From Anaerolineae bacterium (GTDB lineage: Bacteria; Chloroflexota; Anaerolineae; Aggregatilineales; UBA3940), in the NCBI GenBank assembly GCA_016926255.1, contig JAFGOY010000011.1, positions 70,399 through 134,398 of the forward strand: DNA of 64,000 nt. The letters are read 5' to 3'. Below are positions 57,574 through 60,486 of the stretch, in pieces. The notes beneath the pieces were generated by a model, which worked only from the letters and a program-made list of their open reading frames with translations, was not told the DNA's origin and did no database searches. The stretch's first letter is position 1. Every line of letters begins with the position of its first letter. The translations under genes and the position numbers were made by a program.

Positions 57574-59343
57574 CTAGAACATGCCGGTGATTTTCCCCGT
57601 CTCCAGATCGACGTCGATTTTCATATACGCAGGGCTGGTCGCCAGGCCGGGCATGGTGCTCATCGTCCCGATCAGCGGATAGATGAACCCCGCCCCCACG
57701 CTGGCGCGAACTTCGCGCACCGGGATGGTGTAGCCAGTGGGGACGCCCTTCAAAACCGGGTCGTGGCTCAGGCTGAGGTGAGTCTTTGCCATACAGATGG
57801 GGAGATTCCCGTAGCCGACCCGCTCGTAGGTCGCAATCTGCTCCTCGGCGAGCGGTTCATAATGAACATTCCCGGCACCGTACATTTTGGTAGCAATATG
57901 CTCGATCTTACGCTTGATCGACCAGTCCAGCGGGTAGAGGAACCTGAAATTACTCGGCTGTTCGCAGGCTTCGACGACCGCTTCGGCCAAGGCGCGTGCT
58001 CCTTTACCTCCTTCTGACCAGTGGGTGCTGCTGACGGCGGCAAAAGCGCCCCGATCTTTCGCATACTGGCTGACCATCTCGATCTCCGCGTCGGTGTCTT
58101 CAGAGAAGCGGTTGATGCACACCACCACCGGAATGCCAAAATACTTTGCATTTTTGATATGCGCGCCGAGGTTTGGCAGCCCGGATTCCAGCAGGGGAAG
58201 GTCTTCCTGGACATAGGCCGGGTCCAGAGGCGCACCGGGACGCACCTGCGGCCCGCCGCCGTGCATCTTCAAGGCGCGGACGGTGGCGACCAGCACAACC
58301 GCATTTGGCACCAGCCCGGAATAGCGGCACTTGATATCGAAGAATTTCTCCATGCCGATGTCGGCCCCAAAACCGCTTTCGGTGACGACGTAGTCGCCCA
58401 GCTTGAGGGCGATCATATCGGCGATGATCGACGAATTGCCGTGCGCGATGTTGGCAAATGGCCCGGTATGGATCAGCGCCGCCTGCCCCTCGAGGGTTTG
58501 CATCAGGGTGGGCATCAGCGCATCAAGCATCAGAGCGGTGACAGCCCCGGCCACGCCCAGATCGTCAAGTGTAATCGGTTCACCGGCATGGCTCAGACCG
58601 ATCATGGCACGCCCGACCCGCTCACGCAGGTCTTTGAGCGTGGCAGAGAGGGCGAGGATCGCCATCAATTCCGAGGCGACTGTGATGTCGAAGCCGGTCA
58701 GCCGGGGGAAGACCGGACTGGGCGAATCGTCGGCCAGCTTATCGTCATTGAGACCGATCTGGATGCTTCGCAGGCTCCGGTCGCAGACGTCGACAACCCG
58801 GTGCCAGGTGATCGAGTCCGGGTCGATGTCCAGCCGTTTGTCGATGCCGCGCCGCTTGAGAGCATCGTCGGACTGGCGGCTTTCGTGATACATTCGGGTG
58901 TCGATGGCCGCTGCGACAAGGTTGTTTGCCACGCCAATCGCATGCAGGTCGCCAGTCAGGTGCAGGTTGAAATCCTCCATCGGGATCACCTGGCTGTAGC
59001 CACCACCCGCCGCCCCGCCCTTGATGTTGAAGGTCGGCCCCATGCTTGGCTGGCGGATGCAGGCGATGGCCTTTTTCCCAAGCTCCGATCCCAGGGCCTG
59101 AACCAGCCCCAGTGTGGTTGTCGTTTTGCCTTCACCCAAGGGCGTGGGAGTGATCGCGGTTACGTCTATGTATTTGCCCTGGGGATTACCGGCGAACTTC
59201 TGAAGAACGCCAAGGTGAATTTTAGCCTTGTTCCGCCCGTACAATTCCAGATCGTCTTCGGACAGCTCTATCTTCTCCGCAATGGCGATGATCGGGCTGA
59301 TTTTCGCAGCCTGGGCTATATCTATGTCGCTGGGAATACTCAT
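57574..59343 (-). CDS. fhs: Formate-tetrahydrofolate ligase
   Basis: [44 protein letters not shown] and CMAKTHLS motifs. Confidence 0.97.
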
Positions 59344-59392
59344 CGGAAGCTGCTCCTTACAAACTTACCGGACAATAAACCAGATGCCGGTA

Positions 59393-59696
59393 TTTGAAAA
59401 TGTTCAAAACTCACCCCAAAATGTTCAAAACTGGCTTGAAAATGTTGAAAGATTGTCGAAAACTTTTCAACATTTGTTGAAAGTTTTCCGGGTTTTCAAC
59501 AATTCACCCTCGACTTTCAACAATTTATCAACAATGGTGAAGCAGTCAATTGTTGAAAGATCACCCCTACATATGGGGGATAAGTGACCTCCCCACCCCC
59601 ACATATAGGGGTCAGAAGGCAACTTTCAACAATTTCAACAATGCCTACTACTAAATACTAAAATAATAATATAGATGTGATCATGAATTTTGAACA
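59393..59696. other. Putative chromosomal replication origin (oriC)
   Basis: AT-rich intergenic region with about 13 YTTTCAACA/TTATCAACA-like 9-mers in both orientations. It ends in CTTTCAACA-ATTTCAACA-ATGCC-TACTACTAAATACTAAAATAATAAT (box pair, spacer, DnaA-trio-like run). Confidence 0.75.
59564..59611. promoter_or_regulatory. Tandem NrdR-box-like palindromes
   Basis: CCCCTACATATGGGGG (59564-59579) and CCCCCACATATAGGGG (59596-59611), 32 bp start-to-start. Confidence 0.6.
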
Positions 59697-59751
59697 TTCA
59701 GATTTGAGAAAAGTTCTTATCAATCATCTACTGCAAAGATAGCAAAGGAAT

Positions 59752-60486
59752 CTACTCATTGCGCAGATCACGCGTCAGCGGGACGAAGCGCACCCCACCC
59801 AGGCTGATGTTGGTATAGTCATCACCCTCTCGTTCGACGAGCCAGAGTTCCTGATAACCACCCACCGGGCCGACTGGGATCACCATTTTGCCGCCGTCTT
59901 TTAACTGGGTGAGCAGCGGCGGTGGAATGTGATCGGGTGCGGCGGTAACGATAATTGCATCGAAGGGAGCGTGATCCTCCCAGCCGAAATAGCCATCGTC
60001 ATGAAGCACTTCGACATTGGTATAGCCAAGCCGATCAAGTCGATCTCCGGCCTGCTCCGCCAGCGCGCCGACGATCTCGATGGTATAGACCCTGTCGACG
60101 ATTTCGGCCAGCACCGCTGCCTGGTAACCTGATCCCGTACCGACTTCGAGGATCACATCACTCTCGTCCGGGTTAAGGGCGTCGGTCATCAGAGCGACAA
60201 TATAGGGCTGCGAGATCGTCTGGCCGTAGCCAATCGGTAGCGGGTGATCGGCGTAAGCCTGCGCCAGATAGTCGTCGGGTACGAACTCGTGGCGCGGGAC
60301 GGCATTCATCGCCTCGATCACTGCGGGGGTGGTGATCCCCCGCCCGACGATGGCTTCTTCAACGAGCGCCTCGCGGGCCGCGCTGTAGGAATCCTCGTTC
60401 GGAGCTTCGTCTGCTTTTTCTTTTGTTTTGCAGGCGGTGGCGATCAGGAGAAGCAGTATAGCGGCGGTGATCAGTTTGCCTCGCAT
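59752..60486 (-). CDS. pcm: Protein-L-isoaspartate O-methyltransferase with a putative lipoprotein signal peptide
   Basis: VPRHEFV, GQTISQP, LEVGTGSGYQAA, APFDAIIVTAA and VRFVPL motifs; N-terminus MRGKLITAAILLLLIATA-C. Confidence 0.9.
   Translation of the reverse strand: MRGKLITAAILLLLIATACKTKEKADEAPNEDSYSAAREALVEEAIVGRGITTPAVIEAMNAVPRHEFVPDDYLAQAYADHPLPIGYGQTISQPYIVALMTDALNPDESDVILEVGTGSGYQAAVLAEIVDRVYTIEIVGALAEQAGDRLDRLGYTNVEVLHDDGYFGWEDHAPFDAIIVTAAPDHIPPPLLTQLKDGGKMVIPVGPVGGYQELWLVEREGDDYTNISLGGVRFVPLTRDLRNE

Follow-up and report, generated by a model that had tools for sequence, protein, structure and literature searches.

In a 64-kb stretch of the genome of an Anaerolineae bacterium (hereinafter the window; positions 70399-134398 of contig C23 in the assembly that we label G000, i.e., G000:C23:70399-134398), two 16-bp quasi-palindromes resemble the paired boxes bound by NrdR, the repressor known from ribonucleotide reductase (RNR) operons, and lie within a cluster of DnaA-box-like sequences laid out in the manner of a replication origin. 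Based on sequence comparisons across the class, we consider it probable that these palindromes constitute a genuine NrdR operator built into the origin (oriC) between an array of DnaA boxes and the unwinding module, and that a second such operator lies upstream of dnaA. The sites conform to the rules for NrdR boxes, are found together with nrdR among relatives, and hold a fixed place and helical register in the module. The original prediction, which read the palindromes as NrdR boxes in oriC, is hence supported on three counts: the box rules, the presence of nrdR in the genome, and the origin-linked conservation of the pair in relatives.

The assembly of the window genome measures 4.61 Mb in 82 contigs and is 96% complete. 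Throughout, G-numbers other than G000 denote relatives, C-numbers contigs, and L-numbers fetched loci. The family sample comprises 24 genomes, G000 included, of which G000 and G015 belong to one genus; outside the family, we used the 29 best-scoring RNR loci taken from 60 other genomes of the class.

Paired palindromes within an origin-like module

The elements of the module, in window coordinates, are as follows:

59401-59559, no strand assigned: DnaA-box-like array of ten 9-mers (TGTTCAAAA, TGTTGAAAG, TTTCAACAA, TATCAACAA and similar), about 10-11 or 21 bp apart
59564-59579, no strand assigned: NrdR box 1, CCCCTACATATGGGGG, with C4, A6, A8, T9, T11 and G13 all present and 6 of 8 positions A/T between C4 and G13
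59580-59595, no strand assigned: linker of 16 bp, ATAAGTGACCTCCCCA
59596-59611, no strand assigned: NrdR box 2, CCCCCACATATAGGGG, with the six conserved positions kept and 6 of 8 positions A/T between C4 and G13
59624-59641, plus strand: tandem DnaA-box pair, TTTCAACAA TTTCAACAA, 12 bp past NrdR box 2
59645-59700, no strand assigned: CTA CTA CTA (trios at 59645-59653; 3'-GAT-5' three times on the other strand) and AT-rich DNA, the presumed unwinding region

As set out in a 2026 mutational study (PMC13584703), an NrdR site consists of two partially palindromic 16-bp boxes joined by a 15-16-bp linker, with the conserved positions C4, A6, A8, T9, T11 and G13 in each box; of these, C4 and G13 are indispensable and A6 and T11 seem to be critical, and the stretch from C4 to G13 must be at least 63% A/T. 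With its 16-bp linker, all 12 of the 12 conserved positions (hereinafter 12/12) and cores of 75% A/T, the window pair agrees with these rules as given there. The two box starts lie 32 bp apart, the pair spans 48 bp, and box 1 begins 4 bp past the last DnaA-box-like 9-mer of the array. The pattern CCCCNANATNTNGGGG has two matches in the window versus none in each of 100 dinucleotide-preserving shuffles. Across the whole 4.61-Mb assembly, 12/12 pairs at a spacing of 31-32 bp occur exactly twice, namely the window pair and the pair upstream of dnaA, versus zero or one such pair at each of five control spacings; a pair scan of the same assembly with a position weight matrix recovered these two loci as the only strong pairs. 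A score of at least 11/12 is by itself at background genome-wide (11 pairs versus 8-12 at control spacings), and within box arrays it is inflated by the DnaA-box repeats, such that controls there reach 11-12; we therefore put weight on 12/12 pairs, on the box arms and on position. Searched for as a pair across the family, CCCCNANATNTNGGGG proved overly strict, matching G000 alone, and a relaxed core pattern was then used. An Rfam scan of 59200-59900 returned nothing near a gathering score (best 23.6 bits vs 44).

As a separate observation, dozens of CCCCCA-NNNN-TGGGGG palindromes occur across G000 (CCCCCAGTATTGGGGG, CCCCCAATACTGGGGG, CCCCCAAACCTGGGGG; e.g., C50:105445, C50:115787 and C63:589). 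These have no A8-T9 centre, are unrelated to NrdR boxes, and may be a dispersed repeat family.

The 9-mers of the array are of the type TGTT[GC]AAA(A/G)/TTTCAACAA, the trinucleotide TGC separates the tandem DnaA-box pair from CTA CTA CTA, and the segment 59645-59700 is 78.6% AT vs 40.5% for the window. A basal unwinding system, in the definition of PMC8287927, comprises a DnaA box, often tandem, at most 16 bp from at least three DnaA-trios (NAN, consensus 3'-GAT-5'), and the box pair, trios and AT-rich DNA of the window agree with that definition. The cluster is unique in G000, with 11 variant boxes per 500 bp vs 3 in the next best, and no cluster of more than three canonical TTATCCACA-like boxes was found anywhere in the assembly. 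We predict that this module is the active oriC. Both the placing of the two quasi-palindromes, 32 bp apart at 59564-59611, and their letters had been given exactly in the original prediction, and the layout that it described, with the pair between the main DnaA-box array and the final box pair plus trio element, was verified.

Conservation with the origin-like module and co-loss with nrdR

A two-box probe matched 19 of the 24 family genomes, and the array could be delimited in 17. In ten of these origins (G000, G015, G001, G008, G020, G022, G010, G014, G023 and G004) the order of array, NrdR pair, DnaA-box pair, trios and AT-rich DNA is constant, and trio runs of the CTACGACTACGACTAAAT type are found in the relatives. 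In 7 of the 10, the distal NrdR box is preceded by a DnaA box at 4-8 bp; on the other side, the proximal NrdR box is followed by the next DnaA box after 12 bp in G000 and G015 and after 22-23 bp in six origins, while in G020 and G004 a script places the next strict box at 31 bp and a degenerate box can be made out by eye at about 20-22 bp. Among origins, the gaps between NrdR and DnaA boxes are offset by roughly one helical turn. At least eight genera share this layout, and their flanking genes differ, falling into seven Pfam-named neighbourhoods (fhs/pcm, MFS, HD-dGTPase-like, MutS, QueA/aconitase, methyltransferase/AlkZ-like, and acyl-CoA dehydrogenase/CHASE2). The genes flanking the ten origins, named by Pfam, are:

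G000 and G015: fhs and pcm
G001: F420H2-quinone-reductase-like and MFS
G008: HD/HD_assoc dGTPase-like and methyltransferase
G020: MutS and Yip1
G022 and G023: QueA (plus aconitase in G022)
G004: methyltransferase and AlkZ-related
G014: acyl-CoA dehydrogenase and CHASE2
G010: Fer2/Fer4 protein

In the window itself, the two neighbours of the module are:

57574-59343, minus strand: fhs (formate-tetrahydrofolate ligase), open reading frame, PF01268 with E=5.8e-181 on L058; left neighbour of the origin-like region in this genus only
59752-60486, minus strand: pcm (protein-L-isoaspartate O-methyltransferase), open reading frame, PF01135 with E=3.3e-62; right neighbour, with its 3' end towards the origin

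The neighbour in G008 (L051, G008:C74, at about 12.8-14.0 kb) combines HD and HD_assoc domains and resembles dGTP triphosphohydrolases, i.e., it is another enzyme of the deoxynucleoside triphosphate pool.

Given that the layout recurs with different flanking genes, the pair tracks the origin and not fhs. The start codon of fhs lies 221 bp from box 1 (about 220 bp in the original prediction), and in G000 and G015 the pair occupies the stretch 221-268 bp upstream of it, which is what one would expect if the palindromes regulated fhs and thereby put the one-carbon (C1) supply for the synthesis of purines and thymidylate under NrdR control, as had been proposed as the alternative. Of the 23 fhs loci from 22 family genomes that were compared, those of G000 and G015 alone have both pair and array; the 21 fhs loci outside the genus (20 genomes) show neither a 12/12 pair nor a DnaA-box array, and the three 11/12 pairs detected in them have no C-rich/G-rich arms. 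In those genomes the pair stays with the array beside unrelated genes, being kept inside the origin-like module whatever its flanking genes. We accordingly rejected fhs as an NrdR target, and regard this alternative as scarcely credible.

The second pair in G000 lies on contig C6, which carries dnaA, at C6:8316/8347, i.e., 303-349 bp upstream of the dnaA start. Its boxes, CCCCCAGATATGGGGG and CCCCTACATCTGGGGG, are joined by a 15-bp linker and retain 12/12 positions, with 5 of 8 positions A/T between C4 and G13 in each box. DnaA-box fragments of the canonical type flank it, TTATCCACT at about 28 bp on one side and GGTGGATCG at 8 bp on the other (C6:8279-8287 and C6:8371-8379), and the dnaA pair of G012 has GTGGATAAC within its linker; these fragments may reflect DnaA autoregulation beside NrdR. 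In G022, which carries a second dnaA-like gene with 54% identity (L031, G022:C35:53927-58315), a 12/12 pair is found about 312-343 bp upstream of that gene as well.

By protein search and the TIGR00244 model, nrdR is absent from 6 of the 24 family genomes. In the five of these that were examined (G004, G006, G007, G009 and G017; G021 was left out), the RNR gene nrdJ and its promoter are retained throughout (L204-L208). In G004, G006 and G009, nrdR is gone from its place between the promoter and nrdJ; G017 has an nrdR relic with 31% identity and one zinc-ribbon cysteine lost, and G007 has a relic of 25 residues. The absence of nrdR is a gene loss and no assembly gap. A DnaA tree (23 family and 3 outgroup sequences) requires five changes for this absence, and well-supported branches force at least two of them. 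The counts of box pairs, which are taken over related, non-independent genomes and are given with no P-value, are:

Upstream of dnaA, pair of at least 11/12: 11 of 17 genomes with nrdR (four more at 10/12) and 0 of 6 without it (all at most 8/12)
Origin-like locus, pair of at least 11/12: 8 of 11 genomes with nrdR (G023 at 10/12, boxes recognisable) and 1 of 6 without it (G004)

Since the pair decays where nrdR has been lost, the feature is under selection.

NrdR and its boxes at other loci

NrdR is encoded once in G000:

C15:17479-17949: nrdR, 157 amino acids, zinc ribbon plus ATP-cone; PF03477 at 52.7 bits, TIGR00244 equivalog at 127.7 bits (cut-off 124.65)

This protein, the presence of which the original prediction depended on, is the sole ATP-cone match of the assembly. 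Its gene lies 73 bp upstream of the class II-type nrdJ, the only RNR gene detected; PF02867 has one match in the assembly, on contig C15, and PF13597 and PF00268 have none, in agreement with the earlier statement that the window itself is devoid of an RNR gene.

Outside the family, nrdR lies directly upstream of the RNR gene in 21 of the 29 RNR loci, which were scanned at spacings of 30-33 bp. A pair with at least 11/12 positions was recovered in 17 of these 21, either immediately in front of nrdR or in the interval separating it from the RNR gene, with 12/12 pairs in 9; two of the four pair-less loci are cut off at the locus edge. For example, L107 of G041 has CCCCCACATATAGGGG and CCCCAACATATGGGGG upstream of nrdR, the first of which is letter-identical to box 2 of the window. 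The box arms in these families range from textbook CAC..GTG to CCCC..GGGG. NrdR residues 15-17 read D-T-T in G000 (VVDTTSD), such that Asp15 is kept and position 17 is Thr; NrdR versions with D-T-T (the window family, G035, G078 and G041) pair with C-rich/G-rich arms (CCC..GGG), and versions with D-T-R, found in most other families, mostly with CAC..GTG arms. The window family has exceptions, e.g., G010 with D-T-R. This co-variation of NrdR residue and box arm, though imperfect, is suggestive of a tie between the two. G035, G078 and G041, all with D-T-T, carry boxes at their own nrdR-RNR operon.

At the dnaA loci of other families, 12 pairs (at least 11/12, at 31-32 bp) were detected in 9 of 29 loci versus a total of 3 in four control spacing sets. 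Seven of the 12 lie 100-400 bp after dnaA and four upstream of it (e.g., the 12/12 pair of G037). In these families the origin lies directly after dnaA, its classical place, and the homologous module there consists of TGTGGATAA boxes ending in a box plus a CCCTAC.. trio run; by eye, the pairs stand inside the TGTGGATAA cluster in G031, G074, G041 and G053, and after it in G030. The window family uses the variant DnaA box TGTT[GC]AAA(A/G) with an origin away from dnaA (L050-L080; 12 kb from it in G008), and the others use TGTGGATAA (L122-L146); the intermediate boxes TGTGGAAAA and TGTTGATAA occur in G020, G023 and G000.

Competing explanations and predicted action

A number of observations weigh against an NrdR operator in oriC. 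The host is known solely as an uncultured metagenome-assembled genome, and the role as oriC and the NrdR site are both predicted. With respect to the origin, the 9-mers deviate from TTATCCACA at two positions and are only presumed to bind DnaA, and dnaA is on another contig (C6). The GC skew does not change sign here, being positive in both flanking 5-kb bins (+0.028 and +0.046), and the minimum of the cumulative skew lies about 30 kb off, near C23:100 kb (about 29.6 kb in the window). Overall the skew is weak and irregular on both C23 and C6; on C23 it is negative over 65-100 kb and positive over 100-150 kb. With respect to NrdR, the nrdR-nrdJ operon is devoid of a box pair within 1.5 kb in all 18 loci (G000 and 17 family relatives) under two scoring schemes, such that the usual setting of NrdR boxes, an RNR promoter with an overlapping RNA polymerase site, is not seen here. 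The motif is likewise uncalibrated on the genome's own nrd sites, a matrix built from these being impossible because the operon carries no boxes. In Streptomyces coelicolor NrdR, according to PMC13584703, Asp15 and Arg17 read C4/G13; Thr replaces this box-contacting Arg17 in the window genome. At dnaA, the boxes do not cover the promoter element but precede it by about 80 bp, an unusual geometry for a repressor. As for the distribution, G004 keeps a decayed origin pair (T11 of the second box changed to C) despite the lack of nrdR, and G018 and G013 have nrdR and no origin pair, their NrdR being without Asp15 and the nrdR of G013 also having an in-frame TGA. The repeated loss of nrdR with the origin kept implies that the sites are dispensable for origin function. 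Finally, no phylum-wide association with dnaA emerged from 28 further dnaA loci (6 of them from two further families of the class and 22 from other classes of the phylum), in which 2 pairs were seen vs 4 in the control sets; in this sample, the feature has a patchy distribution in the class and does not extend across the phylum.

Some of these observations would also be accommodated if the locus were, in place of an origin, a DnaA-titrating or DnaA-reactivating cluster of the datA/DARS type at which NrdR acts. The missing skew switch, the location of dnaA on another contig and the boxes off the canonical consensus are what such an explanation can draw on. We nevertheless consider it quite improbable: the cluster is the sole one in G000, where no group of more than three canonical boxes competes with it, it includes a complete unwinding module of box pair, trios and AT-rich DNA, and the homologous module of other families sits right after dnaA. 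It is also very improbable, in our estimation, that the palindromes only look like NrdR boxes and in fact serve another DNA-binding factor or function as a structure (cruciform). The box-free nrd operon and the missing Arg17 of the family NrdR could be read in this way, as could the abundance in G000 of other G+C-rich CCCC..GGGG palindromes; yet the six conserved positions and the 15-16-bp linker are present, boxes of the same type stand upstream of the nrdR-RNR operons of sister families, including those with a D-T-T NrdR, and the boxes are lost where nrdR has been lost in situ.

The most substantial rival accepts the sites as real NrdR sites and holds that they act in transcription or passively, through a promoter in or near the origin or as a sink titrating NrdR, with no direct effect on unwinding by DnaA. 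In the sources available to us, NrdR is known solely as a transcriptional repressor, and, with no more than 57 bp between the fhs ATG and the first array box, the fhs promoter has to overlap the array; furthermore, nrdR and the boxes have been lost repeatedly with the origin module kept. Such an explanation is at odds with the same place and helical register of the pair in ten origins with differing neighbour genes and orientations, in several of which no gene start faces the boxes, and with the second pair at dnaA, which points to a replication-initiation regulon. On balance we judge it unlikely and favour an operator integral to the origin.

From sequence alone, the nrdR-nrdJ operon of the family appears to have lost its NrdR boxes, leaving oriC and dnaA as the only detectable NrdR targets. 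In this context we also noted an inverted repeat, CTTAAA-N(11 or ~20)-TTTAAG, which lies just upstream of the -35 element of the dnaA promoter in 16 of 24 family loci and 16 of 29 other-family loci. At nrdR-nrdJ promoters, this CTTAAA-N-TTTAAG element occurs in 17 of 18 family loci vs 1 of 29 RNR loci elsewhere (L008-L049, L092-L149). G000 holds three copies, one of them upstream of dnaA at C6:8212-8234 and another upstream of nrdR at C15:17335-17367. In this family, it would seem, the RNR operon has exchanged its NrdR operator for the element seen at dnaA. One may extend this, tentatively and at less than even confidence, to a scenario in which NrdR of the family has been re-targeted altogether, no longer controlling RNR and serving as a dedicated dATP/ATP-sensing regulator of initiation with operators in oriC and upstream of dnaA only, the nrdR-nrdJ operon having been handed to the factor that binds CTTAAA-N-TTTAAG.

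According to the NrdR literature (PMC13584703 among others), NrdR with ATP only forms oligomers that do not bind DNA, dATP brings about the DNA-binding form on two boxes, for which sharply bent box DNA is needed, and a single box is not bound. If NrdR binds the origin pair, as we predict, then at high dATP relative to ATP its tetramer would occupy and bend the 48 bp between the array and the unwinding module, the very stretch across which DnaA assembled on the array has to communicate with that module. NrdR would also bind upstream of dnaA, and both origin firing and dnaA expression would follow the nucleotide pool. We lean, by a small margin, towards an inhibitory effect, i.e., a SeqA-like joint hold on oriC and dnaA at high dATP/ATP, over an IHF-like stimulation. 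The inhibitory sign is favoured because NrdR is a repressor, because the joint targeting of oriC and dnaA recalls SeqA, and because nrdR has been lost repeatedly while the origin was kept, which indicates that the sites are not needed for firing; the positive role is favoured by the fixed helical register and by the distance of the dnaA sites from the promoter element.

Regulators that bind oriC are known from several bacteria, e.g., SeqA in Escherichia coli, CtrA in Caulobacter, Spo0A in Bacillus, MtrA in Mycobacterium and AdpA in Streptomyces. Like the window pair, their sequence-specific sites are interleaved with DnaA boxes, and SeqA and MtrA jointly target oriC and the dnaA promoter. Unlike these regulators, none of which is related to NrdR and which respond to methylation or phosphorylation, the signal at the window pair would be dATP/ATP, perceived via the ATP-cone. 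The E. coli oriC has an IHF site between R1 and the DnaA-box array, and the window likewise has a predicted site for a bending protein, with the main array on one side and the unwinding-proximal DnaA box(es) on the other; the NrdR site is, however, twice as long and suited to a nucleotide-gated tetramer, and the repeated loss of nrdR argues against its being required. The NrdR sites of RNR operons in E. coli, Streptomyces coelicolor, Listeria and Streptococcus share with the window the paired 16-bp boxes, the six positions, the 15-16-bp linker, the AT-rich core and an NrdR with zinc ribbon and ATP-cone; in contrast to them, the window boxes stand in an origin-like module, with counterparts upstream of dnaA and not at an RNR promoter, have CCCC/GGGG arms, and go with Thr17.

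NrdR has reportedly been connected with replication genes before, some of these being listed as candidate targets by Rodionov and Gelfand in 2005. As reported in the parts of the literature accessible to us, nrdR is often clustered with dnaA, dnaB, dnaI and polA, and the NrdR papers describe RNR regulons only; the 2026 screen for NrdR boxes, going by its available text, covered only 500 nucleotides at RNR operons (PMC13584703). Among the titles, abstracts and passages covered, our literature search retrieved no report of NrdR boxes in a replication origin; for dnaA, a site may already have been predicted for one taxon or another in published work. In E. coli, DnaA controls the transcription of nrdAB. 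As in the window, DNA sites there link the initiation machinery with the synthesis of deoxynucleoside triphosphates; however, in E. coli the initiator regulates RNR, whereas in the window the direction would be the opposite, with the RNR regulator acting on the origin and the initiator gene.

For a poorly studied class, the analysis yields a usable origin definition and a variant DnaA box of the TGTTGAAA type. Besides recurring in the family, the feature is present at roughly a third of the dnaA loci sampled from other families of the class (9 of 29), and the family presents an NrdR regulon apparently rewired away from RNR. It has long been asked how bacteria adjust the start of replication to their stock of DNA precursors, and the links known so far are indirect or run from DnaA to RNR; if our reading is true, a nucleotide-sensing repressor with phase-locked sites in the origin and sites at dnaA would constitute a direct link from the nucleotide pool to initiation.

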